Positions 10,218 through 40,766 of a stretch of 64,000 nucleotides of DNA are shown here, in pieces. How positions within the stretch are numbered: position 1 is the first letter of the stretch; every line of letters begins with the position of its first letter. The stretch is from Bacteroidales bacterium (GTDB lineage Bacteria; Bacteroidota; Bacteroidia; Bacteroidales; WCHB1-69). The stretch lies in contig JAFRUI010000013.1 in assembly GCA_017438945.1 (NCBI GenBank), positions 29,611-93,610 of the forward strand. The letters are read 5' to 3'. Under the pieces are notes generated by a model that worked only from the letters and a program-made list of their open reading frames with translations, searched no databases and was not told the DNA's origin. The translations under genes were made by a program, and so were the position numbers.

Positions 10218-10283
10218 CACCCAAAACTTTGAACTTTGAACTTTGAAACTTGAATTCTGAAACTTAGAAAAAAACATATTATT

Positions 10284-21437: not shown

Positions 21438-21470
21438 TAAGCTGATAAATTTGTAGGTTTCCCCATTTTG

Positions 21471-21504
21471 TAGGGACGCGATGAATCGCGCCCCTATATT
21501 TTTT
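21471..21504 (+). terminator. Intrinsic terminator hairpin plus T-run after the 3717-aa gene (GTAG-hairpin family)
   Basis: TAGGGACGCGATgaATCGCGCCCCTA forms a ~10-12 bp stem with 1 mismatch, followed by tattttttacg. It lies 34 nt after the stop. Confidence 0.75.
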
Positions 21505-21541: not shown

Positions 21542-21606
21542 GCTTCAATAACCCATAACCATTAACCCTCAATGTCAATGTCAATAACCTATAACCACTA
21601 ACCATT
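21542..21606 (+). repeat. GCTTCAATAACCCATAACC... heptamer-word element, copy E1, upstream of murG
   Basis: gcttcaataacccataaccattaaccctcaatgtcaatgtcaataacctataaccactaaccatt. The first 20 nt equal the reverse complement of 30318-30337. Confidence 0.9.
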
Positions 21607-21614
21607 AAAAAATG

Positions 21615-21622
21615 TATTTTTG
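21615..21622 (+). promoter_or_regulatory. -7 promoter box (TATTTTTG) for murG
   Basis: aaaaaatgTATTTTTGcggcg, 21 nt upstream of ATG 21643. Confidence 0.6.
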
Positions 21623-21642
21623 CGGCGCAAAACCAAACCGTT

Positions 21643-22749
21643 ATGGAAAAGAGATACATTATCAGCGGCGGCGGCACCGGCGGGCACATATTCCCCGCGT
21701 TAGCCATCGCCAACAAGATCAAAGCGGAGAATCCCGAAGCCAAAATCCTCTTCATCGGGGCGAGTGACAAAATGGAGATGCGACGAGTGCCAGAAGCTGG
21801 CTATCCCATTGAAGGACTGGAGATTTACGGCATCCACCGCGACATGTCTCTCAGCGGTGTGATGTGCAATCTGCGCCTGCCCGTGGTGATGATGAAGGCC
21901 ATGCGCAAGGCCAAGAAGATCATGCGAGAGTTCAAGCCCGACCTGGCCATCGGCGTCGGCGGGTTCGCCAGCGGTCCCGCTCTGAAGGCCGCCTCACAGC
22001 TCGGAATCCCCACGCTTTTGCAAGAACAGAACTCCTATCCCGGCGTCACCAACAAGATGCTGGCCAAAAACGCCAAGGCCATCTGTGTGGCCTACGACGG
22101 CCTCGACCGCTTCTTCCCGCCCGAGAAAATCATCAAAACAGGCAATCCCATCCGCAAGGAAATCTTGCAATTAGTGCGCAAATCACCAGCGGCGTATGAA
22201 TATTTCAACTTCTCACCCGACAAGAAAACCGTGCTGGTAGTGGGCGGTAGTCTAGGCGCACGCACCTTCAACCAAACCATGGCCGCCAATCTGGACGCTT
22301 TCCGAAAAGCCGACCTGCAACTGCTTTGGCAAACCGGTGAACAGTTCTACAAGAACATTGACCCCGAACTGCTGAAACAGCAGGACGAACACATCCATAT
22401 TGTGCCGTTCATCAAGAACATGAACGACGCCTACAGCATGGCTGATGTCATCATCTCCCGCGCCGGCGCGTTGGCATTGGCGGAACTGGCCATCGTGGGA
22501 GCTCCAACCATCCTCGTGCCGTTCCCCTACGCCGCCGAAGACCACCAGACTTTCAACGCCAAGGCCCTATCCACCAAAGACGCCGCGCTCTTCATCCCTG
22601 ACAGCGAAGCCAAAGAGAAGCTGATTCCCACACTGTTACAATTGGTCAACGACCCGCACCGGATGGAAACCCTCGGCACAAACATCAAAACTTTCGCCCT
22701 GCCGAACGCCATCGACTTGATTTACGACGAAATCCTGAAATTATCTTAA
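21643..22749 (+). CDS. murG: UDP-N-acetylglucosamine--N-acetylmuramyl-(pentapeptide) pyrophosphoryl-undecaprenol GlcNAc transferase
   Basis: 368 aa. N-terminal ISGGGTGGHIFPALAIA G-loop. C-terminal SRAGALALAELAIVGAPTILVPFPYAAEDHQTFNA motif. Confidence 0.9.
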   Translation: MEKRYIISGGGTGGHIFPALAIANKIKAENPEAKILFIGASDKMEMRRVPEAGYPIEGLEIYGIHRDMSLSGVMCNLRLPVVMMKAMRKAKKIMREFKPDLAIGVGGFASGPALKAASQLGIPTLLQEQNSYPGVTNKMLAKNAKAICVAYDGLDRFFPPEKIIKTGNPIRKEILQLVRKSPAAYEYFNFSPDKKTVLVVGGSLGARTFNQTMAANLDAFRKADLQLLWQTGEQFYKNIDPELLKQQDEHIHIVPFIKNMNDAYSMADVIISRAGALALAELAIVGAPTILVPFPYAAEDHQTFNAKALSTKDAALFIPDSEAKEKLIPTLLQLVNDPHRMETLGTNIKTFALPNAIDLIYDEILKLS

Positions 22750-22785
22750 CGTACAATTTGAACCTTGAACCATAAACCAACTATC

Positions 22786-23277
22786 ATGAACGGAGATCCA
22801 AGATTATACCAACTGTTGGACGAACTGCATATCCCCTACGAATATCTGGAGCATCCGCCCGCCCCGACCATCGAGATTGCCAAGCAATACTGGGCTGGGC
22901 ACGACGCCAAACACTGCAAGAACCTCTTCTTCCGCAACCACAAGGGCAACCAGCACTATCTGGTCTGCCTCGACTGCGACCAGGACATGAACATCCACGA
23001 CATCGAGAAACAGCTGCATCAGGGCAAGCTGAGCTTCGCCTCGGAACCGCGATTGATGAAATATTTGGGCGTGACTCCTGGCTCCGTGACCCCTTTCGGA
23101 CTCATCAACGACACGGAGCACCATGTGCATGTGTTCCTTGACCGTCAGCTGCAGCAGGCGGAGCGCGTGAGTTTCCACCCGTGCATCAACACCGCCTCGC
23201 TCATGGTGGCGCGCGCGGATTTTGAGCGTTTCCTGCAGTATATGGGGAATCCGTACGAGTGGATCGATTTATATTAG
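22786..23277 (+). CDS. YbaK/ProX-type aminoacyl-tRNA editing (prolyl-tRNA synthetase-associated) domain protein
   Basis: HCKNLFFRN.KG.QHYLV, LGVTPGSVTPFGLIND and VSFHPC.NTASL motifs. The track start at 22765 is a TTG; the first ATG is at 22786. Confidence 0.65.
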   Translation: MNGDPRLYQLLDELHIPYEYLEHPPAPTIEIAKQYWAGHDAKHCKNLFFRNHKGNQHYLVCLDCDQDMNIHDIEKQLHQGKLSFASEPRLMKYLGVTPGSVTPFGLINDTEHHVHVFLDRQLQQAERVSFHPCINTASLMVARADFERFLQYMGNPYEWIDLY

Positions 23278-23337
23278 CTTTTGGCTGTTGGCTGTTAGCT
23301 ATTGGCACTTCGCTAATTCTTTGATTGAAAAATTGTT

Positions 23338-24387
23338 ATGTTGAATTGTAGAGCATTAATATCCCAATTAGAGGAAACGCAAATTCTCAGCAAGGAGGAG
23401 TTTGCCTTTTTGATCGCGCAGCATTCCGAGGAGGACGCGCAGTTTCTGTTTGAGCGGGCACGGACGGTGCGGGAACGCGTTTTCGGAAAGTCCGTCTATT
23501 TGCGCGGGTTGATAGAAATCTCGAACTACTGCGCCAACGACTGCTACTATTGCGGTATCCGGCGGAGCAACGAAACGGCAGAACGCTACCGTCTTACCGA
23601 AGAAGACATCCTCGCTTGTTGTGACGAAGGTTATCAGCTGGGGTTCAGGACGTTCGTGATGCAGGGCGGCGAAGACGCGCATTTTACCGATGAAGTGTTG
23701 GTCCGGTTGATTGGCAACATCAAATCGCGTTATCCTGATTGTGCTGTCACCCTGTCGTTAGGCGAGCGTGCAAAGGAGCGTTACCAAAAGCTCTTTGACG
23801 CGGGTGCAGACCGCTATCTGCTTCGCCATGAGACAGCTAACGCGCAGCATTACGCGCAACTGCACCCCGCGTGGATGTCGCACGCGAGGAGAATCCAATG
23901 TCTGTGGGATTTGAAGGAGATCGGCTATCAGGTGGGAACGGGTTTCATGGTGGGCACTCCCTTCCAAACGCCCGAACTGTTAGCGGAGGACATGCTCTTC
24001 ATCAAGGAGTTGCAGCCGCAGATGGTGGGAATCGGGCCGTTTGTGCCGCACCACGCCACGCCGTTCGCCAACGAGCAAGGCGGCACTGTGGAGCAGACTC
24101 TCTTCATGCTCGGCCTTTTGCGACTGATGATGCCGCAATTGCTTCTGCCTTCCACCACCGCATTGGGCACTATCGACAAAACCGGTCGCGAGAAAGGGCT
24201 GTTGGCCGGTGCCAACGTGGTGATGCCGAATCTTTCGCCGGTATCCGTACGCAAAAAATACGACTTGTACGACAATAAAATCTGCACAGGGGACGAATCG
24301 GCGCAATGCGTCAACTGCCTGGGTGTCAGAATCGCTTCAACCGGCTACAAGATTGACGTGAACCGCGGCGATGCACCGGGGTGGTAA
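23338..24387 (+). CDS. hydE: Radical SAM protein of the HydE family ([FeFe]-hydrogenase maturase E-like)
   Basis: 349 aa. CANDCYYCGIRRSN is the CX3CX2C radical-SAM cluster motif. RYRLTEEDILACCDEGYQLGFRTFVMQGGED is family-typical. C-terminal CTGDESAQCVNC (C-X7-C-X2-C) is an auxiliary cluster motif as in HydE. Confidence 0.65.
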   Translation: MLNCRALISQLEETQILSKEEFAFLIAQHSEEDAQFLFERARTVRERVFGKSVYLRGLIEISNYCANDCYYCGIRRSNETAERYRLTEEDILACCDEGYQLGFRTFVMQGGEDAHFTDEVLVRLIGNIKSRYPDCAVTLSLGERAKERYQKLFDAGADRYLLRHETANAQHYAQLHPAWMSHARRIQCLWDLKEIGYQVGTGFMVGTPFQTPELLAEDMLFIKELQPQMVGIGPFVPHHATPFANEQGGTVEQTLFMLGLLRLMMPQLLLPSTTALGTIDKTGREKGLLAGANVVMPNLSPVSVRKKYDLYDNKICTGDESAQCVNCLGVRIASTGYKIDVNRGDAPGW

Positions 24388-24389
24388 TC

Positions 24390-25016
24390 TCAGAAACTTG
24401 CCACCGCTTTCCTTTTATTGCTTGGACGACTTTTCTTCGTCTTCATAACAGAAACAGCTGTGTTATGGCGATCATGCTGTAAGATCCTCACGTCTGTCCG
24501 TAAATTGGCAATGTCTTTTCGAAGTTCTTCTGTGTTCCGATCCAGCTTTTCAGAAAGGTTTTCTATTTTCCGGTCAAACTTCTTATCCATACTCTCAAAC
24601 CGATCATCCATTTTCTCGAACCGCTCGTCCATCTTCTGTTCTAATTTTTCAAACCGCTCGTCCACTTTCTCGAACCGCTCGTCCATCTTCTGTTCTAATT
24701 TTTCAAACCGCTCGTCCACTTTCTCGAACCGCTCGTCCATCTTCTGTTCTAATTTTTCAAACCGCTCGTCCACTTTCTCGAACCGCTTGTCCACTTTTCT
24801 GAATCCATCGCGCATATCAGCGGACAATTGGTCAATTCTTTTAAGAATCTCTTTATGGCCCTCTTCCAGATGTTTTTGGGAAAGGTCAAGCCGGGTCACT
24901 TTTCTTGCGAACCGAAAGAGAAGCCAAGCAGCTATCAAAAGAAGACTGAAAATAGTAGAAAACATACCAATTGGACTTTCTGCTAAAATTTGCAACACTT
25001 CAATTATCTTATTCAT
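24390..25016 (-). CDS. N-terminally membrane-anchored coiled-coil protein with DERFEK tandem repeats
   Basis: 208 aa. One TM helix (MFSTIFSLLLIAAWLLF). It is followed by a charged heptad-like region containing FEKVDERFEKLEQKMDER x3. Confidence 0.6.
   Translation of the reverse strand: MNKIIEVLQILAESPIGMFSTIFSLLLIAAWLLFRFARKVTRLDLSQKHLEEGHKEILKRIDQLSADMRDGFRKVDKRFEKVDERFEKLEQKMDERFEKVDERFEKLEQKMDERFEKVDERFEKLEQKMDERFEKMDDRFESMDKKFDRKIENLSEKLDRNTEELRKDIANLRTDVRILQHDRHNTAVSVMKTKKSRPSNKRKAVASF
24613..24796. repeat. Perfect 54-bp tandem repeat, 3 identical copies plus a partial fourth, inside the coiled-coil gene
   Basis: Unit ttctcgaaccgctcgtccatcttctgttctaatttttcaaaccgctcgtccact occupies 24613-24666, 24667-24720 and 24721-24774 with 0 mismatches. 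A partial copy follows with a C>T change. Confidence 0.95.
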
Positions 25017-25104
25017 ACTCTGCTTTTTATGATTATTTAATTTTTGAATATTTTGTTAATTTTATTAATTTTTTGTATATTGATATTTCAGAATTATTTA
25101 AGTG

Positions 25105-25112
25105 CAAATATA
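25105..25112 (-). promoter_or_regulatory. -7 promoter box (TATATTTG on the minus strand) for the coiled-coil gene
   Basis: Plus strand reads caaatata. It lies 89 nt upstream of ATG 25016. Confidence 0.4.
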
Positions 25113-25148
25113 ATTTTTTTTTTGATTACAACACCTTCATAAAAAAAT

Positions 25149-25156
25149 TATTTTTG
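25149..25156 (+). promoter_or_regulatory. -7 promoter box (TATTTTTG) for mtgA
   Basis: aaaaatTATTTTTGccgcc, 44 nt upstream of ATG 25200. Confidence 0.55.
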
Positions 25157-25199
25157 CCGCCTCAAAAAAAAGAGGCATCAGCGTAAGATAAGAGGTGTT

Positions 25200-26045
25200 A
25201 TGGCAAAGAAATCGAAAGGAAGAAAGTTTTGGAAAACATTCGGGAAGATCATTCTCATTCTGTTTATTCTCAGCATATTATTGCCGATTTTGTATCGTTG
25301 GGTCAATCCGCCCGTGACGACATTCCAGTGTGTGCAAGCCATTAGCAACGGCACCGGAATCCACAAGAAATGGGTGCCGATTGAGAAAATCTCCCCTTAC
25401 ATGTACCGGGCGGCCATCGCCTCGGAGGACAATTACTTTCTCGGGCATCGCGGTTTTGACGTGATCGCCCTCAACACGGTGATGGAGGAACGTAAAAGCG
25501 GTCGCCGGCATCGTGGCGGCAGCACCATCTCGCAGCAAACGGCAAAAAACGTGTTCTGCTGGCCGAAAAGTTCATGGGTGCGCAAAGGCGTGGAAACCTA
25601 CTTCACCTTCCTGATTGAGACTTTCTGGTCGAAAGAGCGCATCATGGAGGTCTATCTGAACGTAATTGAGATGGGGCCGGGCATCTATGGTGCGGAAAAG
25701 GCGGCGCAAACTTACTTCCACTGCCACGCTTCGCAACTCACTGCGCATCAGGCGGCCTTAATCACAGCTTGTTACCCCAGTCCCCAAAAGCGGAATCCTG
25801 CCAAGCCGACATCTTATCTGCTCGGTCGCGCCGCCAACATCGAAGGGAAAATGGCCAGATACGGAACTCCCAAATTCACAGACGAATATATCTCTCACGT
25901 GCGCGAGCGTTATCTGAAGTCTGTGGAAAAGATGGAGAAAAGAAAAGGGAAGAAGAAAGGCAAAAGCAAAAAAGGCGTTTGGGATTTCATAAAGCACGAG
26001 ACAAAAAAAACAGCGGTAGATGCTACCGCTGTCCAAAACCATTAA
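25200..26045 (+). CDS. mtgA: Monofunctional biosynthetic peptidoglycan transglycosylase (GT51) with a Lys-rich C-terminal tail
   Basis: N-terminal TM helix. GT51 motifs RAAIASEDNYFLGHRGFD, GGSTISQQTAKNVF and KERIMEVYLNVIEMG. The tail is EKRKGKKKGKSKKG. Confidence 0.85.
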   Translation: MAKKSKGRKFWKTFGKIILILFILSILLPILYRWVNPPVTTFQCVQAISNGTGIHKKWVPIEKISPYMYRAAIASEDNYFLGHRGFDVIALNTVMEERKSGRRHRGGSTISQQTAKNVFCWPKSSWVRKGVETYFTFLIETFWSKERIMEVYLNVIEMGPGIYGAEKAAQTYFHCHASQLTAHQAALITACYPSPQKRNPAKPTSYLLGRAANIEGKMARYGTPKFTDEYISHVRERYLKSVEKMEKRKGKKKGKSKKGVWDFIKHETKKTAVDATAVQNH

Positions 26046-26087
26046 CCTATGTAAGACAATGAAAATTAATTCATAATCATTTTACTC

Positions 26088-27017
26088 TTACGCAGGTTGT
26101 ATAAAAAAGTTACAACTTTCCATAATTTTTTTTGCAAAGGCCGTGTTAGCGAAGTGGCCAGGGCGGCTTGCGGTAATCTCCGCACACAACGGAACCCCCA
26201 GTAAATAAAGGTCTCCGATGAGGTCGAGCAGCTTGTGACGGGCCGGCTCATTGGGATGACGTAAATGCGTATTATTAAGAATATGATCCGGGGTCACGGT
26301 GATGTCTTTCATGTGGAAAAAGTCGCCGAGCTGGGTCAGCACCTTGCTGTCGGGCACTTTGTCAACGAATACGATGGCGTTGTCAAGGTCGCCGCCGCGC
26401 GCCAGGTTGTTCTGGATCAGGAACTGCAGCTCGTCAAGGAAGACAAAAGTGCGGCAGTTATAGACATCCGGAACGAAATTCTCCAAATTGTCAAGGACCG
26501 CCTCCTGCTCAGCCAAAACCTTCGTGCCGTAATCCACATGCACGGTCATTTTGAAGCGTTTCGCGGGCTTAATGGTGAGTTCTATCTGTTTCTCTGGGAT
26601 GGAGAACGTGATTTCCTCTTTCACAAATCCGATTTTTTTCGGGGAATCGAGCGTCACGATGCCGACCTCTTTGAGCATCTCCACATAAATGCGGGAGCTG
26701 CCGTCAAGAATGGGGGTTTCCGGACCGACGGTCTTCACAAGGACATTGTCGATGCCAAGTCCGGCGAGAGCGGCCATAAGATGCTCAATCGTGTGCACTT
26801 GCGCTTCGCCTTCTTTGATGGAAGTGCCACGGGAGGTGTCAAAAACCGAATTTGGGGTTGCCTTGACAATCGGGTTCCCAGGCAGGTCGGTGCGTTCAAA
26901 CTGGATTCCGAAATCGGCGGGTGCGGGCACAAAGGTGACCGTCACCTGTTGAGCCGTATGTAAACCTCTCCCCGATACGGAAACCGGAGAGGCGATGGTG
27001 GTTTGTAATGATGTCAT
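26088..27017 (-). CDS. lpxC: UDP-3-O-acyl-N-acetylglucosamine deacetylase, stand-alone (no FabZ domain)
   Basis: 309 aa. Motifs: GRGLHTAQQVTVTFVPAPADFGIQF, TIEHLMAALAGLGIDN, HKLLDLIGDLYLLG. It ends right after the LpxC fold (GHFANTAFAKKIM). Confidence 0.85.
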   Translation of the reverse strand: MTSLQTTIASPVSVSGRGLHTAQQVTVTFVPAPADFGIQFERTDLPGNPIVKATPNSVFDTSRGTSIKEGEAQVHTIEHLMAALAGLGIDNVLVKTVGPETPILDGSSRIYVEMLKEVGIVTLDSPKKIGFVKEEITFSIPEKQIELTIKPAKRFKMTVHVDYGTKVLAEQEAVLDNLENFVPDVYNCRTFVFLDELQFLIQNNLARGGDLDNAIVFVDKVPDSKVLTQLGDFFHMKDITVTPDHILNNTHLRHPNEPARHKLLDLIGDLYLLGVPLCAEITASRPGHFANTAFAKKIMESCNFFIQPA

Positions 27018-27022
27018 GAAGG

Positions 27023-28033
27023 TTATTGGTTCTTTTTGTTGTTTATATATTGTTGATACAGTTCAGGTAATTTGCGGCGCAGCACCATGAGTTTGCGCTC
27101 TTCTGAAGCGGGCAGTGCCGGACTTCCGAGGTAAACGCCCTGTTTAAGGGAGTGTGACACGCCGGACTGGGCTCCGATAACGGTGCCGTCGGCTATGGAA
27201 ATGTGGCCCGCGATGCCCGCCTGGCCTGCAATGATGCAGCGGCTTCCGAGTTTCGCGGAACCGGCCACGCCCGCCTGTGCGGCGAAAGCGGTGCCCTCCC
27301 CTACCGTGACGTTGTGCGCGATCTGCACGAGATTGTCGATCTTCACGTGATCGTGGATGCGGGTCGAACCCATCGTGGCGCGGTCGATGCAGGTGTTGGC
27401 ACCAATCTCCACATGGTTGCCGATCTCCACGTTGCCGACTTGCGGGATTTTCAGGTACTCGCCATCCTGCTGGGCAAAGCCGAAACCGTCAGCGCCAATG
27501 ACCGCCCCCGCGTGCAGGATGCAGTCGGTGCCGATGTGGCAGTCCTCATAGACCTTGACCCCTGCGTACAAAGTCGTGCGGGCGCCGATCTTCACGCGGT
27601 CGCCGACAACGGTCTGCGGGTATATGCTCGCGCCGTCGCCGATTTCCGCACCGTCACCGATGCTCACGAACTCGCCGATATAGACGTTTTGCCCGATTTT
27701 TGCGGTTGGGGCGATGCAGGCCTTGTCGGAAACGCCCGTCTTGCGCGGTTTGTTCTGCTGGTAGAAGTTCAGGAGCTGCGCGAAGGCGAGGTAGGAGTTG
27801 GCCACCTTGATGAGCGTGCAGGGGACTTCATGTTCGGGCACAAAGTCCTTGTTGACGATGGCCGCCGTAGCTTTGGTGGTATATAAATATTGTGTGTATT
27901 TCGGATTGGAAAGGAAAGTCAGGCCGCCGGGCACGCCCTCCTCAATTTTGCATATCGTGGTGATCTCAGCATTGGGATTGCCCACCACTTCGGCAGAAAT
28001 CAATTCTGCGATCTGTGCAACGGAGTACTTCAT
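27023..28033 (-). CDS. lpxD: UDP-3-O-(3-hydroxyacyl)glucosamine N-acyltransferase
   Basis: Starts [21 protein letters not shown] long hexapeptide left-handed beta-helix region follows ([26 protein letters not shown]...). Start trimmed to ATG 28033, downstream of the -7 box at 28055. Confidence 0.9.
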
Positions 28034-28054
28034 TGTTTGACAATTTTGAGGGTG

Positions 28055-28062
28055 CAAAGGTA
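28055..28062 (-). promoter_or_regulatory. -7 promoter box (TACCTTTG on the minus strand) for lpxD-lpxC
   Basis: Plus strand reads caaaggta. It lies 22 nt upstream of ATG 28033. Confidence 0.55.
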
Positions 28063-28084
28063 CACTTTTTTTGGTAATGACTAA

Positions 28085-28112
28085 GTAGAGGCGAATAATC
28101 ATTCGCCCCTAC
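28085..28112. terminator. GTAG-family hairpin (GTAGAGGCGAAT-aatc-ATTCGCCCCTAC)
   Basis: 12-bp stem with 1 mismatch, lying between the tRNA-Ser promoter and the lpxD promoter. On the minus strand it could insulate lpxD from upstream transcription. Confidence 0.5.
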
Positions 28113-28174
28113 GAACAATCACTTCTCGGAAAAAAGATTTTTTTCACAAGATGTCGTCGTATCAAAAAAAAGTG

Positions 28175-28182
28175 TATTTTTG
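28175..28182 (+). promoter_or_regulatory. -7 promoter box (TATTTTTG) for tRNA-Ser
   Basis: aaaagtgTATTTTTGccgcc, 26 nt upstream of the tRNA 5' end. Confidence 0.6.
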
Positions 28183-28207
28183 CCGCCGATTTCAGAAATG
28201 AAACCAC

Positions 28208-28294
28208 GGAGAGGTGGGTGAGTGGCTGAAACCACCAGTTTGCTAAACTGACGAAGGGGTAACTCTTCCGCGAGTTCGAATCTCGCTCTCTCCG
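28208..28294 (+). tRNA. tRNA-Ser (anticodon GCU)
   Basis: GGAGAGG acceptor stem paired with TCTCTCC. D arm is GGTG...CACC. Anticodon loop is TTGCTAA. A long variable arm (cgaaggggtaactcttccg) is typical of class II tRNAs. T arm is GCGAGTTCGAATCTCGC. Folded by hand; CCA is not encoded. Confidence 0.85.
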
Positions 28295-28303
28295 CAAAAC
28301 CCT

Positions 28304-28338
28304 GTAGAGACGTTTCATGAAACGTCTCTACGTGTTTT
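28304..28338 (+). terminator. Perfect palindromic hairpin plus T-run after tRNA-Ser (GTAG-family, GTAGAGACG type)
   Basis: GTAGAGACGTTTCATGAAACGTCTCTAC is a 28-nt perfect palindrome at 28304-28331, followed by gtgtttt. Being palindromic, it could also terminate the convergent ABC-F transcript. Confidence 0.75.
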
Positions 28339-28370
28339 AAATTCTAAAAAAAAACTGGTTGTTGATTTTT

Positions 28371-30296
28371 TTATTCGCTCAGTTCCAGCCATTCCATCTC
28401 TTTCGCTTCGATGTCGGCCTTGATTGATTCGTAAGCTTGGTACAGCTCGCCAGAGGCGATGGCTTCCGCGTTGCCTTCTGGATTGGCCAACCGCTCCTCG
28501 GTGTCAGCCAACAGACGCTGCAACAACTCCAACTCATCCTCCAGCTTGCGCAAACGGTTCTTCTTCTTCCTATCGTCGGCCTCCCGCTGCTTTTTCTGTT
28601 CCCACAACTCTTTGTTGCTGGACACCTTCTCGCCGGAAGCACTGGATGTGGTAACGTTCCGGTTTTGTAATTCGTTGAGCGTCTCCATCTTACGCTGCGC
28701 CAAGAAATCATAGACATCGCCGACGAAAGCATGCATCTGATGGTTCTTGAACTCATAGACCTTGGAAGTCAACCCTTGCAGGAAGTCACGGTCGTGGGAG
28801 ACGAGAATCAGACTGCCTTCGTACTGCAACAGGGCGTTTTTGAGCACATCCTTGGAAGGCATGTCTAGATGATTAGTCGGCTCGTCGAGAATAAGCAGAT
28901 TGAAGGGGGACAGCAACAGTTTCGCCAACGCGAGCCGCGCCTTTTCGCCTCCGGAAAGCACTTTCACTTTTTTTTCGGTATCTTCCGTGTCGAAAAGGAA
29001 ACTGCCGAGGATGGTGCGGATTTTGGGTCTTATATCGCCAACCGCCACATCGTCAATGGTCTCGAAAACCGTCTTTTCGGGGTTGAGCAGCTGCGCCTGG
29101 TTCTGTGCATAGTAACCTACAACCACTTGATAACCAAGCTGCAATTCACCGCTCTCGGAGGGCAGTGCACCTACGATGGCTTTCACCATAGTCGATTTGC
29201 CCTCTCCATTTCGACCCACGAATGCCACCCGTTCACCACGTTCCAAACGGAAATCCACCCCTTTGAGCACACCCGGTTTTGTATTATAACCCAAGCTGAG
29301 ATTCTTGCTCTCCACCACCACCAGTCCGGAATGCGGCGCAGGTGGGAATTTGAACGAAATGGAACTTTTGTCGTATTCGTCCACCTCCACACGATCCATC
29401 TTCTCCAACATCTTGATCCGGCTCTGCACCTGACGCGCTTTGGTGGCCTTATAGCGGAAGCGTTCGATAAACCGCTCGATCTGCGCGATTTCTTTTTGCT
29501 GGTTTTCATACGCGGACTGCTGGCTCTCAATGCGTTCAAGACGCTGTTCCACATATTTGGAGTAGCTGCACTTGTAATCCTGAATATTCCCCAACGTGAT
29601 CTCAATGGTACGGTTGGTCACACGGTCAAGGAAAGCGCGGTCGTGGGAGACCAGAATGACACATCCGTCATAATTGGCCAAGTAATCCTCCAGCCACTGG
29701 ATGGATTCGATGTCAAGATGGTTGGTGGGCTCGTCCAAAAGGATGATTTCGGGTTTTTGGAGGAGGATTTTGGCAAGACAGACACGCATCTGCCAGCCAT
29801 TGCTGAAAGAGGACATCGGTTGGTGGAACTCCTCACGCAAGAAACCCATACCAGCCAACACCTTCTCCGTTTCGGCCTCTATCATATTGCCACCAAGGTG
29901 GTTATATCTGTCGTTCAAGTCGGAAAGTTGCTGGGTCAGCTGGGCATACCCTTCAGATTCGTAATCCGTGCGTTCGGCCAGCTCGTTGGATATCTGCTGC
30001 ATTTTGCGCTCCATGATGCGAATTTCCTCAAACGCGGAGACCGTCTCGTCCCAAACGGAAAGTGTGGATGTTCCGGCGAGTTCCTGCGGCAAATACCCTA
30101 CCCTATGTCCAGAGGTGATGACCATCGTTCCCGACGCCGGCTCTATGTCCCGATGGATAATCTTCAACAACGTCGATTTCCCCGCACCATTATGCCCCAC
30201 AAGCCCGATACGGTCCTTGTCACCCGCCACAAACGAGATATCCTTGAACAGGAAATCTCCCGTGAAATTGACTGACAGTTTGTTGATTTGAATCAT
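28371..30296 (-). CDS. ABC-F family ATPase with two ABC domains and a C-terminal coiled-coil
   Basis: 641 aa. Two Walker A sites (GHNGAGKSTLLK, GRNGEGKSTMVK). Two signature motifs (FSNGWQMRV, LSGGEKARLALA). No TM segments. The C-terminus is K/E-rich. Confidence 0.9.
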   Translation of the reverse strand: MIQINKLSVNFTGDFLFKDISFVAGDKDRIGLVGHNGAGKSTLLKIIHRDIEPASGTMVITSGHRVGYLPQELAGTSTLSVWDETVSAFEEIRIMERKMQQISNELAERTDYESEGYAQLTQQLSDLNDRYNHLGGNMIEAETEKVLAGMGFLREEFHQPMSSFSNGWQMRVCLAKILLQKPEIILLDEPTNHLDIESIQWLEDYLANYDGCVILVSHDRAFLDRVTNRTIEITLGNIQDYKCSYSKYVEQRLERIESQQSAYENQQKEIAQIERFIERFRYKATKARQVQSRIKMLEKMDRVEVDEYDKSSISFKFPPAPHSGLVVVESKNLSLGYNTKPGVLKGVDFRLERGERVAFVGRNGEGKSTMVKAIVGALPSESGELQLGYQVVVGYYAQNQAQLLNPEKTVFETIDDVAVGDIRPKIRTILGSFLFDTEDTEKKVKVLSGGEKARLALAKLLLSPFNLLILDEPTNHLDMPSKDVLKNALLQYEGSLILVSHDRDFLQGLTSKVYEFKNHQMHAFVGDVYDFLAQRKMETLNELQNRNVTTSSASGEKVSSNKELWEQKKQREADDRKKKNRLRKLEDELELLQRLLADTEERLANPEGNAEAIASGELYQAYESIKADIEAKEMEWLELSE

Positions 30297-30301
30297 TAAG
30301 T

Positions 30302-30337
30302 AATGGTTATGGGTTATTGGTTATGGGTTATTGAAGC
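30302..30337 (-). repeat. GGTTATG-word element, copy E2, 5 nt upstream of the ABC-F start
   Basis: aatggttatgggttattggttatgggttattgaagc. It has 36 nt with 1 mismatch to 34929-34964 in direct orientation. Its reverse complement starts with the same 20 nt as 21542-21561. Confidence 0.9.
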
Positions 30338-30350
30338 TTGGTGTATCGCA

Positions 30351-31514
30351 TCACCGTCTCAGCATCTCAAACGGATCCTCTTTCTGATTTTCAAGATAGG
30401 AGATTTTGCCGATGTTGAGCAGCATACCCATGGCACAGCCGGAGACAAACAGGGAGGCACCACCACTGCTGATGAACGGCAGGGTTTGTCCTGTGGTGGG
30501 CAACAGCTCGCAGTTCACCCCGATATGCACCAGTGCCTGACAGGTGAACCAGAATCCTATGCCGAAGGCCAGGATCCTCCCGAATGTGCCTGTCGCCTCT
30601 TTGGCGATTTTCCGCGCTCGATAAAAGATGATCAGATAGGACAGGAGCACCAACACGCCGACCACGATGCCGGTTTCTTCAAACAATGACGCAAAAGCAT
30701 AGTCTGTTTCTTTCTCGGGCAGACGGTTTTTGATAACCCCCTTTCCTGGACCGGCAGGGTTGAAGCCAGAGCGTGCTATGGCAGACCTTGCCAGAATCAT
30801 CTGGTCTCCATATCCGTCACTGTTGTCTTTGGTGATGTAATATTCCCACCTGTTGATAAATGTCGCCATACGGCCTATTTTCGCCTTCTTGTCATCACTC
30901 AGGTTGGCCACTATGATCACAGCCACCAGAAGGATCGCGGACACGATTCCGATCATGCCGGCAATATCCTTCAGCTTGAAGCCTCCCACAAAGAAAATAA
31001 CCATTCCTGTTATGAATAGAATAATGGCAGTGGACATGTTCATGGTGGCGATGCCGACACAGAAGCCACCCAACAAGAGGAAGAGGAACCGGACATTGGC
31101 GCTGGTCAGTTCCCCATGGTTATGATACTGCCGTGCAATATAGTTGGATATGTAGAAGATTATCAGGAAGCCGATAAAGTAGAACGTCTGCACATCTCGC
31201 CCGAAAATGGTGACACCGCGCACCGCCTGTGACAACATGGTGAGGATCAACAGCCCAGCGGCAACAAAGAGGAAAACGGGGGCGAAAACGCCCAGTTTGC
31301 GATAATCGAACTGATACACAACAAACATCCCGACATATCCGAACAACAGATGCTTCAGGTGCTGGAGCACAATGTTGCCACGCATACTATAAACCATGAC
31401 AATGGATATAGCCGTCAGAAATATCACCACTATGGGGATGATATTGTCCGTTTTCAGCTTAATTCTGTGCAACAGAGGCACTCTAGGGGCGTCAATGTTA
31501 GTCTCCATGACCAT
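30351..31514 (-). CDS. ftsW: FtsW/RodA/SpoVE-family (SEDS) cell-division protein
   Basis: 387 aa, polytopic. C-terminal SEDS motifs (DYAFASLFEETG, TGQTLPFISSGGASL). Occupies the dcw-cluster position. Confidence 0.85.
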   Translation of the reverse strand: MVMETNIDAPRVPLLHRIKLKTDNIIPIVVIFLTAISIVMVYSMRGNIVLQHLKHLLFGYVGMFVVYQFDYRKLGVFAPVFLFVAAGLLILTMLSQAVRGVTIFGRDVQTFYFIGFLIIFYISNYIARQYHNHGELTSANVRFLFLLLGGFCVGIATMNMSTAIILFITGMVIFFVGGFKLKDIAGMIGIVSAILLVAVIIVANLSDDKKAKIGRMATFINRWEYYITKDNSDGYGDQMILARSAIARSGFNPAGPGKGVIKNRLPEKETDYAFASLFEETGIVVGVLVLLSYLIIFYRARKIAKEATGTFGRILAFGIGFWFTCQALVHIGVNCELLPTTGQTLPFISSGGASLFVSGCAMGMLLNIGKISYLENQKEDPFEMLRR

Positions 31515-31520
31515 GACGGT

Positions 31521-32078
31521 TTATAGTTGTGCGACAGCCGCCTTGAATTTGTCCCCACGCTCACGGTATGTAAGCTGGCCATTTCCATGAATTCCAGGAG
31601 CATACAACACCAAATCACCCTTTTGACAAGCATAAAAAGCGTGATTGACGGCATCTTCCATGCTCATGGTCATCATTACGGGGACACCCATCTCGGACAG
31701 CCTTTGGTAAACGTCAATATTATACACTCCTTGCAAAACGACCTCCTTCACCTTTGATTTCACCTCTGACAAGACATCCTCCGTAAGGGCGTCAAGAGAG
31801 TCGATATTGGTGATCCAAACGGTGGGCTTGGTCATGGACTGCAGCGAATACCACACCGCATTGGCCGTCGTGGAACGCGCGTCATCCACAAAGTCAACGC
31901 CCGAGAAGCTTTTGACATGTTCCAGCTTATGGGCATTTCCCTCGAAATCAGCAAGAGATTCGGCAATGTTCCGTTGACGTAATTTGATAAGTTGTTCAGA
32001 AAGTGTGCCAACACGTGGATTGGCGGTCTCGCGCGCTTGCTCAAACAAGCGGAAGCTGTTGGTTTTTTTAGTCGGCAT
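31521..32078 (-). CDS. MurD C-terminal-domain-only protein (185 aa), a remnant or stand-alone Mur-ligase C-domain
   Basis: Aligns by eye only to the last ~170 aa of MurD: LADFEGNAHKLEHV matches F.GL.HR.E.V, and GVDFVDDARSTTANA matches G..NDSKATN. It ends ERGDKFKAAVAQL. No Rossmann N-domain and no GxxGKT/S P-loop. Only 93 nt separate it from the mraY stop. Confidence 0.6.
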   Translation of the reverse strand: MPTKKTNSFRLFEQARETANPRVGTLSEQLIKLRQRNIAESLADFEGNAHKLEHVKSFSGVDFVDDARSTTANAVWYSLQSMTKPTVWITNIDSLDALTEDVLSEVKSKVKEVVLQGVYNIDVYQRLSEMGVPVMMTMSMEDAVNHAFYACQKGDLVLYAPGIHGNGQLTYRERGDKFKAAVAQL

Positions 32079-32171
32079 AATGGTTTTGGTTTATTATTCT
32101 ACTTACTTTTATTTATCCAATTATCATATTATCTAATCATCGTTTCATCGTTTCATCGTCTCATCCTCCAA
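32079..32171. repeat. AT-rich spacer ending in a TCATCGT-word array, at the place where the murD 5' two-thirds should be
   Basis: ...aatcatcgtttcatcgtttcatcgtctcatcctcc (32136-32170). The same word family occurs at 39446-39486. Confidence 0.8.
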
Positions 32172-33434
32172 CTACCTGACTTTCAAAGTCACTATAGCCA
32201 AGACTGCGAGAATCATGCTGACCACTATGAATCGTTGTACAATTTTCGATTCATGAAGGCCTTTTTTCTGGAAATGGTGGTGCAGTGGTGCCATCAAGAA
32301 GATCCGGCGCCCTTCGCCATACCGTTTCTTAGTGTATTTGAAATAGGACACCTGCATGATTACCGATATGGACTGGGCCAAATAGACACCGCAAAGAATA
32401 GGGATGAGGAGTTCTTTGCGGATGATGATGCATGACACCGCCACAATGCCGCCTAAGGTAAGGCTTCCGGTGTCACCCATGAATACCTGAGCGGGATAAC
32501 AGTTCCACCAATAAAACCCGATACAGGCGCCAATCACGGCAGAAATGAAAATCACCAACTCCCCTATATTCGGGATATACATGATATTCAAATAGTTGGC
32601 AAATATCACGTTACCCGAGACATACGCCAGGATAGCTATACCGACCGCGATGGAGGCGGTCGTCCCTGTCGCTAACCCATCCAGTCCGTCAGTGAGGTTC
32701 GCCCCGTTGGAGACGGCGGCTATGATGAACACAATGATCGGGATGAAAAGCAGAAATGACCATCTTCCACTCTTGTCTCCCATCCAGCGGGTGAGTGCTG
32801 AATAGTCCAACTCGTGATTCTTCACAAAAGGAATCGTGGTCTTAGAGGAGTGATGGGGTTCATCAAACAGTTTGGGCGTGTTGGCTTTCTCCTGATTCTC
32901 CACCTGCAACAGCTCGTTGGGGCTCACCTGTGTCAACGATTGTTTCTGCACTTTCTTCTCGCTAATCATCGCATCGGGATGGAAATACATGGTTGCACCC
33001 ACTAATAGGCCAAGGATAATCTGCCCGATCAGTTTTTTTCTCGGGGAGAGCCCATCTTTGTTCTTCTTGAACACCTTGATATAGTCGTCGGCAAAACCTA
33101 ATATTCCTAACCATATCGTGGTGAAAATCATCAGGATAATGTAAATATTGGTGAGATTACAAAGCAGCAGCACAGGAATGAGGATAGCCGCGATGATGAT
33201 CAGTCCACCCATGGTCGGGGTTCCCGCTTTCTCGCTTTGGCCCGCAAGCCCCAAATCGCGCACGCTTTCACCTATCTGTTTCTTTTTCAAAAATTGAATG
33301 AAGTATTTTCCTATGAAAACAGATATGAACAATGCCAACACAAAAGCCATTGCGGAACGGAACGAGATGTACTGGAAAATCCGAGTCCCGTGATAGCCGC
33401 TTTCATGAAGCCAAGAAAACAGATGATACAACAT
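32172..33434 (-). CDS. mraY: Phospho-N-acetylmuramoyl-pentapeptide transferase
   Basis: 420 aa, polytopic. Motifs: [31 protein letters not shown]. Confidence 0.9.
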
Positions 33435-33445
33435 AATCTACTGAC

Positions 33446-34918
33446 TTATTTGATGTTGAAAAAATTCTTTATTTCCTCCGTGTCGTCAAAATGATGTTTG
33501 ACGTGGTTGATTTCCTGATAGTTCTCATGACCTTTCCCCGCAACCAACAGAACGCCGTCGGATGGCAGCATCATGCAAGCCGTCTTGATGGCTTCATGAC
33601 GGTTTTCGATGACCAGCACATGCTTCGCTTTGCTTGCAGGAACCCCTTTCTGCATATCATCCAGGATAGCCATGGGGTCTTCGGTGCGCGGGTTGTCGGA
33701 GGTCAGCAGCACCTTGGAACTGTACTTGCAGGCAATCTCCGCCATTTCGGGCCGCTTCAGCGCGTCACGGTCACCGCCACAGCCCACCACCGTAATCACC
33801 TCGGCCTCCTTGCCCACAATGTCGCGGATGGTTTTCAGCACGTTCTCGAGCGCATCCGGCGTGTGTGCGTAATCGACAATGGCAGTGCCTCCATTTTCAG
33901 AATGCAGCATCTGAAAACGCCCTGCCGCACTCTCCAACATACTCATCCGCGCGAGCGCGTCATACTCGTCCATCCCCAACAACACAGCGGCTCCATAAAT
34001 GGCCAATAAGTTGTATGCATTGAATTTCCCGCACAAGCGGAAAAAGACTTCGCGATTGTTGATGCGCATGTGCAAACCCGAAAAGGCATTCTCCATCACG
34101 ACCCCCTTGAAATCGGCTGCGGTGCGCAAACTGTAAGTATGAATGGCTGCTTTCGTGTTCTGCACCATCACACGCCCGTTCTTGTCATCCACGTTGGTGA
34201 GTGCAAAAGCGGATTTCGAGAGTTTGTCGAAAAAGGACTTTTTCGCGGCAATATAATTGGCAAACGTCTTGTGGAAGTCCAAATGGTCATGGGTGATGTT
34301 GCTGAAGATAGCTCCGGCAAAGCGCAGTCCGGACACACGATGTTGGCAAAGTGCGTGCGAACTCACCTCCATAAAGCAGTATTCGCAATGACGGTCCACC
34401 ATTTGCGCGAGCAACTGGTTGAGTTCCACAGCGTCGGGAGTGGTGTGCGTGGACGGGATCTCCTCATCCCCGACTTTATTCACTATCGTGGAGAGCAGAC
34501 CTGTCTGGTGACCGGCAGACATGAACAAACGGTGCAAAAGCGTCACTGTCGTGGTCTTGCCGTTGGTACCGGTAATGCCGACCAGTTTCAGCTTGCGGCT
34601 CGGATGGTCGTAATACGCATCCGCCAATTGCCCCAACGCCACAGAGCTGTCCGCCACCTTGATGTAGCAAACCTCCTTGTCCAAAGTCTCCGGCAGTGTT
34701 TCACAAACCACCGCACGACACCCTTGAGCAATCGCCGCAGCAATGTACTTGTGCCCATCGGTTTGTGTACCACGTTGTGCCACATAAAGTTGCGAACATC
34801 CTTTCGGCTGTGTCGCCACGCGCCGCGAATCAAACAGGATCTCCGTGATTTCAATCCCCGGATTTCCCGTCAGCTCACAGCTACGCAGCGCTTTCAACAA
34901 TATATCTAATGGTTTCAT
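33446..34918 (-). CDS. murE: UDP-N-acetylmuramoyl-L-alanyl-D-glutamate--2,6-diaminopimelate ligase
   Basis: 490 aa. GITGTNGKTT P-loop. DYAHTPDALENVL. The C-terminal DNPR motif (LTSDNPRTEDP) indicates DAP specificity. Confidence 0.9.
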   Translation of the reverse strand: MKPLDILLKALRSCELTGNPGIEITEILFDSRRVATQPKGCSQLYVAQRGTQTDGHKYIAAAIAQGCRAVVCETLPETLDKEVCYIKVADSSVALGQLADAYYDHPSRKLKLVGITGTNGKTTTVTLLHRLFMSAGHQTGLLSTIVNKVGDEEIPSTHTTPDAVELNQLLAQMVDRHCEYCFMEVSSHALCQHRVSGLRFAGAIFSNITHDHLDFHKTFANYIAAKKSFFDKLSKSAFALTNVDDKNGRVMVQNTKAAIHTYSLRTAADFKGVVMENAFSGLHMRINNREVFFRLCGKFNAYNLLAIYGAAVLLGMDEYDALARMSMLESAAGRFQMLHSENGGTAIVDYAHTPDALENVLKTIRDIVGKEAEVITVVGCGGDRDALKRPEMAEIACKYSSKVLLTSDNPRTEDPMAILDDMQKGVPASKAKHVLVIENRHEAIKTACMMLPSDGVLLVAGKGHENYQEINHVKHHFDDTEEIKNFFNIK

Positions 34919-34928
34919 TGTCTTTTTT

Positions 34929-35022
34929 AATGGTTATGGGTTATAGGTTATGGGTTATTGAAGCGGGGTTATAGGTTAAGAGGTTATAGAGGTTAGGAGG
35001 TTAGAAGGTTATGGTTTATTCC
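34929..35022 (-). repeat. GGTTATG/GGTTAKR-word element, copy E3 plus extension, 10 nt upstream of the murE start
   Basis: aatggttatgggttataggttatgggttattgaagc, followed by ggggttataggttaagaggttatagaggttaggaggttagaaggttatggtttatt. Confidence 0.9.
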
Positions 35023-35050
35023 TTGACATCCCGGCAGGGATGAAAGCTCG

Positions 35051-35076
35051 GTAGAGGCGTATCGCATACGCCCGAC
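35051..35076 (-). terminator. GTAG-family hairpin directly after the ftsI stop (possible attenuator or processing site inside the dcw operon)
   Basis: GTAGAGGCGTATcgcATACGCCCGAC forms a 7-bp GGCGTAT/ATACGCC core plus imperfect outer pairs. A second small hairpin, CATCCCggcaGGGATG, lies at 35026-35041. Confidence 0.45.
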
Positions 35077-35078
35077 AT

Positions 35079-37340: not shown

Positions 37341-37746
37341 GTTTCCGCTCCTTTCTCTTGAACCAACGGCGTTTCTCCACCGGTTTCGGGGTCGCTTTCA
37401 CCGTAAAGCACTGTTTTTCATCGGTGATATATCCTTTTTCCTGCATCTTTTGGATAAGGATTTTGTTTTTCTCGTATGGAATGAACTGGTTGTTCGCTTT
37501 CAGTCGGCTGATTTCAGCCTTGTAGGTGTTTTCCAGTTCCATGATTTTTTTCTCTTTGATATGGATGCGCTGCTCGCTGACAACCAGCACGGTGACCAGA
37601 ACAAGCAAAAAGAAAACATAGAAATACCACGGCCTCATCTTCTTTTTCACCAATATTTCACCACCGAAAATATTGGAGAAGAACTCGCCAAAACGGGTCT
37701 TTTCCGGCTTTTGATTGGGGTTGATATTTCTAGAGGTGGTTTCCAT
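37327..37746 (-). CDS. ftsL: FtsL-like small bitopic division protein
   Basis: 139 aa. Single TM helix (WYFYVFFLLVLVTVLVV) followed by a short coiled-coil. Located between rsmH and ftsI, overlapping both. Confidence 0.65.
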   Translation of the reverse strand: METTSRNINPNQKPEKTRFGEFFSNIFGGEILVKKKMRPWYFYVFFLLVLVTVLVVSEQRIHIKEKKIMELENTYKAEISRLKANNQFIPYEKNKILIQKMQEKGYITDEKQCFTVKATPKPVEKRRWFKRKERKHENK

Positions 37747-39122: not shown

Positions 39123-39150
39123 AACTTTTTCTATGTTAATTTTCGAGCGA

Positions 39151-39158
39151 CAAAAATA
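39151..39158 (-). promoter_or_regulatory. -7 promoter box (TATTTTTG on the minus strand) for the mraZ/dcw operon
   Basis: Plus strand reads caaaaata. It lies 29 nt upstream of ATG 39122. Confidence 0.55.
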
Positions 39159-39415
39159 TAATTTTTCCATAACATATTTCCATAAATCGCATCTTATTTA
39201 ACTCATGTTGTTAAAAAAACACCTTATCTTACTGATTTTCAATATGGAAAATATTGGAAAAAAGTTATCAACAGAAATCAACAGCAATATCAAAGAATTG
39301 ATACACAGTAATTTAAATCAATCTGTTAAGAAAACTGTTATCTTGTTTATTATCAGCTAGATAAAAATCTAATTGGAATTTTTAGGAATTTACATCTTGC
39401 GAACGGAAGAAATAT

Positions 39416-39440: not shown

Positions 39441-39493
39441 TCCTCTCATCGTGTCATCGTGCCATCGTATCATCGTGCCGTCCTCAAATTTTG

Positions 39494-40727: not shown

Positions 40728-40766
40728 TCTTCAGCTATTAACCAGCCAAAAGCCAACAGCCAAAAG

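Follow-up and report, generated by a model that had tools for sequence, protein, structure and literature searches.

Tandem heptamer repeats have been described between the genes of Xanthomonas, as (GGGAATC)n, and of Nostoc and Anabaena, as (GGGGA(C/T)T)n of the STRR type (Rehm et al. 2015, PMC4692102). These repeats have one or two degenerate positions in the unit, mostly hold four units, are about 90% intergenic, occur on both strands and number about 185 per genome, and their G-rich strand is either the non-coding strand 0-50 bp upstream of open reading frames (ORFs) or the coding strand after a stop codon, sometimes overlapping it (PMC4692102). Copies are kept between the same genes in related species, with variation in sequence and length, and are unlinked to mobile elements and to surface or phase-variable genes (PMC4692102). 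Here we describe an element of comparable build, GCTTCA-(ATAACCN)4-ATTA, about 37 nt long, three copies of which lie in a stretch of 64,000 nt from a Bacteroidales bacterium (WCHB1-69; assembly GCA_017438945.1, contig JAFRUI010000013.1, positions 29,611-93,610 of the forward strand), called the window below. One copy lies upstream of murG, one before a gene for an ABC-F ATPase and one before murE, the last two within the minus-strand gene run that carries the division and cell wall (dcw) cluster.

A second point of comparison is the initiation of translation in the same phylum. In Bacteroidetes, translation is sensitive to structure in the 5' untranslated region (5'UTR), ribosomal protein S1 has been proposed to bind unstructured leaders, and the sequence logos of leaders differ from lineage to lineage (Accetto and Avgustin 2011, PMC3155529); initiation is enhanced by an A at position -3, and sequences near starts avoid AUG (Baez et al. 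2019, PMC6847099). An earlier note on the window had read the copies near murG and the ABC-F gene as inverted repeats around an 8.7-kb block, whose inversion could have separated murG from ftsW, and had allowed that they might instead, or in addition, be leader elements. We find that all three sequences belong to a multi-copy intergenic element, lineage-specific and found in a rumen Bacteroidales sub-clade.

The element in the window and in other genomes

The copies and their immediate surroundings in the window are as follows.

21542-21563, plus strand: copy 1, short (GCTTCA, two ATAACCN units, TT); reads GCTTCAATAACCCATAACCATT; the same in four independent assemblies
21564-21607, plus strand: degenerate continuation of copy 1 (TTAACCC, (TCAATG)x2.8, ATAACCT ATAACCA CTAACCA TT)
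21615-21622, plus strand: putative -7 box TATTTTTG, read from the sequence, which fits the Bacteroidetes TAnnTTTG
30301-30337, minus strand: copy 2, canonical (GCTTCA, three ATAACCN units, ATAACC, ATTA); the reverse complement of 30302-30337 reads GCTTCAATAACCCATAACCAATAACCCATAACCATT
34928-34964, minus strand: copy 3, canonical with four units, 10 nt ahead of the murE ATG; the 36-mer of the copy at 30302 with one mismatch
34965-35019, minus strand: TAACC-rich degenerate array directly upstream of copy 3
34919-35138, minus strand: ultra-conserved block, made up of the 160-nt ftsI-murE spacer and the last 60 nt of ftsI, delimited by comparison with the relative L125

The sequences and coordinates that had been reported for the copies (21542-21563, 30302-30337 and 34929-34964, the third with one mismatch) proved exact on re-reading. 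Their common 19-mer, GCTTCAATAACCCATAACC, matches the window three times (plus strand from 21542; minus strand with ends at 30337 and 34964), with 0.00 expected from 100 shuffles, and clusters of TAACC occur in the 64 kb at these three sites only. Copies 1 and 2 share an exact inverted identity of 20 nt (21542-21561 against 30318-30337); they are inverted because murG and the ABC-F gene point toward each other, each with an element in sense orientation.

Relatives used for synteny were ranked by FtsW identity: L125 (92%), L050 and L117 (90%), L126 (82%) and L127 (78%); L128 is a same-species contig from JGI. Copy 2, which lies 13 nt past the ftsW stop and 5 nt ahead of the ABC-F ATG, has orthologues in L050, L117 and L125, and copy 3 has one in L125. 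Placement just upstream of a gene start, claimed earlier for all three copies, holds for the ABC-F gene and murE, but copy 1 is short and interrupted and lies 79 nt from the murG ATG, 5' of the -7 box, with its degenerate continuation stopping just short of the murG promoter. TAnnTTTG is the -7 promoter consensus of Bacteroidetes; the murG box is kept in a close relative (L009), and the same TGTAnnTTTGCC box stands before other genes of the window. Because copy 1 lies upstream of this box, it is probably outside the murG transcript.

For a census of the family, one genome per GTDB species was scanned for GCTTCAATAACCNATAACC, a 19-mer with one N; all counts of element copies in other genomes given here (n=105, 109, 112 or 115) are among the matches listed. 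The scan returned at least 109 stretches, in about 25 metagenome-assembled genomes (MAGs) of rumen Bacteroidales, which hold 105 of the 109 places (RUG, RGIG, Tb.RUG and UBA studies), with at least 17 copies in RUG083, at least 12 in RUG13189 and at least 10 in RGIG6723. The repeat is not confined to the ends of the murG block: there is a third copy in the window itself and there are at least 109 places elsewhere. Among 112 copies, 78 hold four units, 18 hold three and 9 hold two. The six ATAACC positions are essentially invariant, and the seventh is A, C or T, with G in only 2 of 234 units. The array is followed by ATT in 91 of the 112 copies, mostly as ATTA, and 5' of GCTTCA there are usually other heptamer arrays (CACTAAT, AACTACT, AAACCCT and their complements).

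Only 2 of 115 copies lie inside an ORF, the others being intergenic. A coding boundary is found no more than 15 nt from the ATT end in 75 of the 105 copies that could be classified; 50 of these boundaries are sense start codons and 25 are stop codons of convergent genes. The 112 copies from other genomes show a strong bias of orientation toward the gene downstream. In 48 of 56 sense-start copies, 3-10 nt (mode 8) separate the last ATAACC from the ATG, position -3 is A in 40 of 58 such copies, and G is near-absent from -14 to -3. At convergent stops, the TTA of the element is itself the TAA stop of the convergent gene in 16 of 25 copies. Thirteen of the 112 copies, including that of murG, stand directly 5' of a TAnnTTTG box, and one locus (L041) has two divergent copies 3' of such boxes, so that these lie inside 5'UTRs.

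Judged by eye from their first codons, with no family search, the genes downstream seem to be housekeeping genes without relation to one another (tyrS, lepA, gpmA, panD, leuS, prfB, mpl and the ABC-F gene). The same genes recur in different species, which indicates that copies are inherited at orthologous sites; copies shared across species in this way precede the ABC-F gene, murE, gpmA, panD, prfB and lepA. Two contigs from IMG/VR also carry the element. In one (L130), it stands directly before an ATG; in the other (L131, IMGVR_UViG_3300031993_004049), a canonical four-unit copy at 5734-5780 on the minus strand lies in an operon for portal, head morphogenesis and Neck1 proteins, where it starts 5 nt past the Neck1 stop and finishes 7 nt short of the ATG that follows. 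An Rfam scan of 20-40 kb at a permissive E-value found nothing at the three sites and returned only the tRNA-Ser and two sub-threshold chance matches. A full-text literature search for the sequence strings of the element matched soybean primers only, none of them relevant, and looking for heptanucleotide repeats between Bacteroidales genes turned up no direct match but led to the paper on Xanthomonas and Nostoc (PMC4692102).

Comparison with L125 showed conservation in excess of neutral expectation. Over the ftsI-murE spacer, 156 of 160 nt (97.5%) are shared and there are no indels, the corresponding figure for four-fold degenerate sites in murE, mraY, the gene for the MurD C-terminal domain and the ABC-F gene being 44-62%. 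Two of the four spacer differences fall at N positions of the element, inside which there is no other change, and the conserved tract is sharply bounded, running from about 60 nt before the ftsI stop to the murE ATG. In its pattern of conservation, the block at 34919-35138 looks like a strongly constrained non-coding element within the dcw operon. The same block holds hairpins at 35027-35042 and 35051-35073, the TAACC array and copy 3, and is 97-100% identical to its one divergent homologue, from a relative with synonymous sites near saturation. Before the ABC-F gene, the elements of three species differ at N positions only, and the relatives at 82% and 78% have other TAACC-type arrays in the same spacers. 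Since the spacers are conserved within the group and other arrays are found further off, the element is under constraint within a species group and is replaced at longer distances. The spacer between ftsW and the ABC-F gene measures 309 nt in L125 (11159-11466) and 54 nt in the window; ahead of the element, the L125 insert has about 18 copies of the 8-mer GATGARRC and about seven CACTAAT heptamers. This expansion indicates that spacer length is free to change while the last ~40 nt stay fixed.

Arrays with a period of 7 are common in the window beyond the element. There are 13 with at least three units, as opposed to 0.4 in shuffled sequence, and they outnumber arrays of periods 5, 6, 8 and 9. 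They are also present in L009, L125 and L127 and are absent from more distant loci (MurG at most 75% identical), and orthologous spacers hold different array units in different species.

619-683, 1058-1089, 10225-10265, 23277-23306, 40744-40767, 57596-57626 and 62453-62567, intergenic: examples of period-7 arrays with varied units
32137-32165 and 39446-39477: 8-mer arrays

We consider the structural and evolutionary part of this explanation to be very likely correct.

Gene order around ftsW and murG

Gene identities were taken from NCBIfam profiles, and the remaining ORFs of the window were scanned with Pfam and NCBIfam. The genes and features in question are these.

21643-22749, plus strand: murG (TIGR01133, 300 bits, above cutoff)
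28208-28295, plus strand: tRNA-Ser(GCT), with its own promoter-like box, in a 268-nt gap where synteny with relatives breaks
28304-28331, no strand assigned: perfect 28-nt hairpin GTAGAGACGTTTCATGAAACGTCTCTAC, found by inspection between the convergent tRNA-Ser and ABC-F genes
28371-30296, minus strand: ABC-F ATPase (NF000355, 471 bits)
30351-31514, minus strand: ftsW (best NCBIfam match TIGR02614 with 173 bits, below the curated cutoff of 337.5; rodA next with 137 bits)
31521-32078, minus strand: MurD C-terminal-domain protein, 185 aa (TIGR01087, profile positions 281-440 of 441)
32172-33434, minus strand: mraY (NCBIfam, above the curated cutoff)
33446-34918, minus strand: murE (NCBIfam, above the curated cutoff)
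35079-39170, minus strand: ftsI, an ftsL-like gene, rsmH and mraZ, together the 5' portion of the dcw run (NCBIfam)
38640-39170, minus strand: mraZ (best NCBIfam match, below the curated cutoff)

Curated NCBIfam cutoffs are passed by murG, mraY, murE and rsmH and missed by ftsW, ftsI and mraZ, and the putative ftsL ORF has no family match in NCBIfam; the place of ftsW in the dcw run supports its assignment. As the earlier note had stated, murG (21643-22749, plus strand) lies 8.7 kb from ftsW on the opposite strand, and Pfam and NCBIfam scans found no murC, ftsQ, ftsA or ftsZ in the 64-kb window. The contiguous order that is canonical in Bacteroidota, mraZ...murD-ftsW-murG-murC-ftsQ-ftsA-ftsZ, is not present here, and the truncated cluster of the window is also found in L125, L126 and L127. 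Two further descriptions in that note need amending: the dcw genes do end at ftsW, but the minus-strand run goes on with the ABC-F gene 54 nt downstream, and the murD slot is filled, but only by the 185-aa C-terminal-domain protein (31521-32078).

The junction of ftsW and the ABC-F gene is widely shared. ABC-F directly follows ftsW in L125, L050, L117, L126 and the same-species L128 (ABC-F 99.5% identical), and in L127 (FtsW 78%) it lies about 4.6 kb further downstream. Across six loci, L125-L127 included, ABC-F is 90.6-97.5% identical where FtsW is 78-92% identical. L126 shares the ftsW-ABC-F order but lacks the GCTTCA element; its array there, (ACTTAGA)n, is unrelated. Just such a case had been named in the earlier note as evidence against an inversion. 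Downstream, ABC-F is followed by a dCache/SpoIIE gene in L125, L050, L126 and L127 and then by a STAS gene in the first three of these (L127 ends within the dCache gene); L117 keeps a remnant of the downstream nonribosomal peptide synthetase, as read from one translated ORF. The order ABC-F then dCache/SpoIIE in relatives indicates that it is ancestral, which places the breakpoint specific to the window at 28.1-28.4 kb and not at 30.3 kb. At 28.1-28.4 kb, tRNA-Ser(GCT) and the hairpin part the ABC-F gene from lpxD-lpxC, where relatives have dCache/SpoIIE. The dcw transcription unit of this clade ends with the conserved ABC-F gene, which stands in the usual place of murG.

A comparison with relatives had been proposed, to see whether ftsW and murG are contiguous in them. 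They are not: in all relatives examined, the most distant with 64% MurG identity, murG lies apart from ftsW, with different neighbours each time.

88% MurG identity: adh_short / asnB-like
75% MurG identity: aspartokinase / DUF179
70% MurG identity: folD / transposase fragment
66% MurG identity: gldN / birA-like
64% MurG identity (L129): about 5 kb upstream of mraZ, divergent, on the opposite strand

In the 88% relative, homology with the window starts at 21606, in the promoter, and where copy 1 would be there is a (CACTGNT)5 array. L129 is a second, independent case of a murG near the dcw cluster and detached from it.

These data bear on the proposal that homologous or site-specific recombination between the inverted copies at 21.55 and 30.32 kb flipped the 8.7-kb block and so parted murG from ftsW, which we now regard as extremely improbable. 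The 20-nt inverted identity at the two block ends is real, and the geometry is arithmetically right, in that a flip would set the murG start after the ftsW stop; the surroundings of murG are also rearranged between close species, with the ybaK-like gene and mtgA on opposite sides of murG in L009 and the window, and another lineage (L129) likewise has murG near the dcw cluster on the opposite strand. However, the flipped block would bring the ybaK-like gene and hydE, not murC, after murG, leaving murC-ftsQAZ unrestored, and the ftsW-ABC-F junction recurs in four or more further species-level lineages, of which one lacks the element. The ancestral dCache/SpoIIE gene after ABC-F puts the breakpoint elsewhere, murG is solitary in five of five relatives examined, and the motif precedes dozens of genes, none of the 105 other-genome loci among the matches listed having it beside murG or murE. 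No window ORF searched has a family match to a recombinase or integrase, GC skew shows no block-wide reversal, although gene-strand effects confound this measure, and 20 nt of identity is under the usual minimum for RecA recombination of about 25 bp.

Population data point the same way. In 25 metagenome contigs with the exact MurG protein and 19 with the exact FtsW protein, all 44 have a single arrangement with the same neighbours. An inversion predicts the junctions ...ACACCAA-GCTTCAATAACCCATAACC-ATTAACCC... and ...TCATTCAACA-GCTTCAATAACCCATAACCA-ATAACCC...; the recombinant junction had 0 matches in JGI metagenomes, a weak negative because the native junction was matched there only once. That weakness speaks against our account, as do the facts that short-read assemblies show the majority orientation only and that three copies in 13.4 kb are a higher density than in the flanks of other genomes, where there is roughly one per 100 kb. 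An assembly artefact was also considered and rejected, the repeats being shorter than assembly k-mers and 44 independent assemblies being in agreement.

We conclude that mraZ-rsmH-ftsL-ftsI-murE-mraY-(MurD C-domain)-ftsW-ABC-F is the ancestral state of the clade and that the break of the dcw cluster after ftsW is an ordinary, ancient and clade-wide rearrangement. murG has long been solitary and mobile, and its closeness to ftsW here is secondary, not a remnant of adjacency. Taken as a whole, a dispersed leader-like element with no inversion scar is likely to be the best explanation of the three sequences.

Several other features of the region deserve mention. The 185-aa gene in the murD slot is kept in all relatives examined, and its protein is 96% identical in amino acids to that of L125, with 57% identity at four-fold degenerate sites. 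A full-library HMMER search found many stand-alone homologues, about 175-210 aa long and 30-50% identical, beside full-length MurD. The murD slot of a dcw cluster can hold a stand-alone MurD C-terminal domain, as the window shows. In the region 26088-28102 (minus strand), LpxC has 309 aa and matches no more than positions 2-300 of the LpxC/FabZ fusion profile, which has 464 positions; the fusion is the usual form in Bacteroidota. The lpxC gene is followed by a convergent mtgA and not by lpxA; with the partial lpxC, this indicates that the lpxD-lpxC/fabZ-lpxA unit is broken here too.

The hairpin at 28304-28331 looks like a terminator by its sequence. It belongs to a second dispersed family, GTAGRGRCG-loop-CGYCYCTAC, whose members lie just past gene ends at 21470-21497, 28085-28112, 28304-28331 and 35051-35073 and are probably terminators; hairpins of this type are also present in several other genomes (L035, L039, L080 and L103), directly 5' of the GCTTCA element. 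Finally, a coiled-coil ORF at 24390-25016 on the minus strand contains an in-frame tandem repeat of 54 nt (18 aa) in 3.8 copies (24595-24801). The call of this ORF and the coordinates downstream are shifted by 154 nt between one same-species assembly (L001) and three others (L002-L004), which indicates that the number of 54-nt repeats is apparently polymorphic in the population.

Possible roles of the element

The sense strand of the element would most plausibly act in the messenger RNA as an open, unstructured leader, or as a spacer between cistrons that leaves the start codon free for the Shine-Dalgarno (SD)-independent initiation of Bacteroidota. The element takes the orientation of the adjoining gene, each gene bringing its own copy. 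Since only one G occurs in the element, ATG, GTG and TTG are all absent from it; its G-free sequence implies no start codon, no SD-like sequence and no G-C pairs. RNA of the spacer between ftsW and the ABC-F gene (61 nt) is predicted to fold with only -0.7 kcal/mol, and both strands of the elements and spacers have no structure beyond that of shuffled sequence, with z-scores near 0.

The leader reading, which had been offered as an alternative in the earlier note, fits the orientation toward the downstream gene, the roughly half of copies that end 3-10 nt before a sense ATG and the position of the phage copy, but not the copies at convergent stops and probably not those before promoters. These and related observations tell against it. 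Twenty-five of 105 copies abut convergent stops and not starts, and 13 of 112 stand 5' of a promoter box, so that they are probably not transcribed with the gene. Moreover, the low structure follows from base composition alone, and an unstructured spacer needs neither invariant ATAACC hexamers nor a GCTTCA cap. Judged from sequence features, a function as a translation leader is possible, with a likelihood somewhat short of even.

The invariant hexamers and the GCTTCA cap suggest sequence-specific recognition by a factor, or a role at the DNA level. That the element is the recognition site of a trans-acting factor, either a protein that binds single-stranded RNA or DNA in a 7-nt register or a component associated with the ribosome, is on balance unlikely. 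If it were such a site, it may be a lineage-specific, non-SD signal of cistron boundaries that co-evolves with its factor, which would explain the differing heptamers at the same spacers in sister species, the six positions invariant within a species group and the use of the element by phage between structural genes. AACC as a general ribosome-binding motif was rejected: it lies within 20 nt of the start in about 8 of 33 window genes, mostly cell-envelope genes. As for pairing with the 3' tail of 16S rRNA, the tail is not known to have a free complementary segment in Bacteroidetes; the window contains no 16S gene.

Other explanations would make the element something else than a leader or a binding site. 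It could be a functionless by-product of slippage, in a lineage with a mutational bias for 7-nt units that are tolerated in non-coding DNA only and so would gather at coding boundaries. The abundance of many-unit period-7 arrays across the intergenic regions of the window (13 against 0.4 expected), their presence in close relatives (L009, L125, L127) and not in distant ones, and the different arrays in orthologous spacers of different species are all consistent with this, and slippage has been proposed for the excess of heptamers in bacteria, in work cited in PMC4692102. Such a by-product is nevertheless improbable. Neighbouring units mostly differ at the seventh base, where slippage would copy exactly; 70% of copies have four units, and unit number is not polymorphic in eight assemblies; the GCTTCA cap and ATTA end are not repeats at all; and six of seven unit positions are invariant over more than 100 loci in several species in which four-fold sites are near saturation. 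Slippage also fits poorly with the strong orientation bias toward the downstream gene and with the copy in a phage operon. A role at the DNA level, in which the G-rich strand (NGGTTAT)4 forms a quadruplex or other structure or binds a protein, as has been proposed for the repeats of Xanthomonas and Nostoc, would account for copies within transcripts as well as outside them, and the heptamer period, the preference for four units and the rule of strand and position match those repeats (PMC4692102). We hold this role to be distinctly improbable, since the G tracts are GG or GGG only, with GG always in the last unit, ViennaRNA predicts no quadruplex for the element while giving -8.4 kcal/mol for the positive control (GGGAATC)4, and a 7-bp spacing does not align the repeats on one face of the duplex.

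Both position classes, sense starts and convergent 3' ends, would be covered by a single account if the element were a Rho-loading (rut-like) site that stops transcription at gene boundaries, whether of untranslated RNA or of read-through RNA, antisense read-through into convergent genes included. The extreme composition, with one G in about 95 nt of the ftsI-murE spacer, and the lack of RNA structure agree with the established properties of rut sites, but 37 nt is short for such a site, rut sites are not conserved in sequence, and loading a terminator directly before the starts of housekeeping genes would be costly; this account is highly improbable. A miniature mobile element of the MITE, REP or PATE kind that inserts at TAA/TTA targets is scarcely credible, even though the family is multi-copy with defined ends and its terminal ATTA provides the TAA stop of the convergent gene in 16 copies. 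The element has no terminal inverted repeats, hairpin or self-complementarity, the composition of its flanks gives no evident target-site duplication, no transposase was seen nearby and no strain-level polymorphism in eight assemblies, and copies at orthologous sites indicate vertical retention, not recent spread.

An uncultured rumen Bacteroidales sub-clade thus carries a discrete, strongly constrained, G-free heptamer element that is anchored to start and stop codons, and we found no earlier description of it, either as an Rfam family or as a relevant literature match to its sequence strings. The choice of start codons without SD pairing in Bacteroidota is only partly understood. If the element is indeed a sequence-defined leader module shared with phage, it would offer a convenient experimental handle on initiation in this phylum.

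Comparison with known systems

Among systems with short inverted repeats around a block of DNA, invertons (Bacteroides invertons, shufflons and the Hin/Gin switches) resemble the murG block in that respect. Unlike them, the block has no recombinase nearby, keeps one orientation in 44 contigs, is bounded by a repeat family with tens of copies and comprises 8.7 kb with eight housekeeping genes in place of a promoter. REP and BIME sequences are, like the element, short, multi-copy, intergenic, often at gene ends and lineage-specific, whereas the element is non-palindromic, forms no stem-loop, consists of tandem heptamers and is oriented to the downstream gene.

The regions of SD-independent initiation in Bacteroidota share more with it, being G-poor and unstructured, with A at -3 and neither AUG nor SD, and differing between lineages. 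Those regions are compositional biases, however, while the element is a discrete 37-nt repeat with invariant hexamers, 25 of whose 75 boundary copies lie at gene 3' ends and 13 of whose 112 copies lie 5' of promoters.

By analogy of architecture and placement, the heptamer repeats of Xanthomonas and Nostoc are the closest precedent. The element differs from them in its host phylum, Bacteroidota, in its unit, ATAACCN (GGTTATN), in its GCTTCA cap and ATTA end, in a much tighter spacing to the ATG (3-10 nt) and in an apparently lower copy number (at least 17 in one genome; about one per 100 kb of flanks); in addition, no quadruplex is predicted on its G-rich strand, whereas one is predicted for the Xanthomonas unit, quadruplex formation being the property that prompted the study of those repeats. 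It has in common with them tandem units of 7 nt, a majority of four-unit copies, an intergenic location and the same rule of strand and position.

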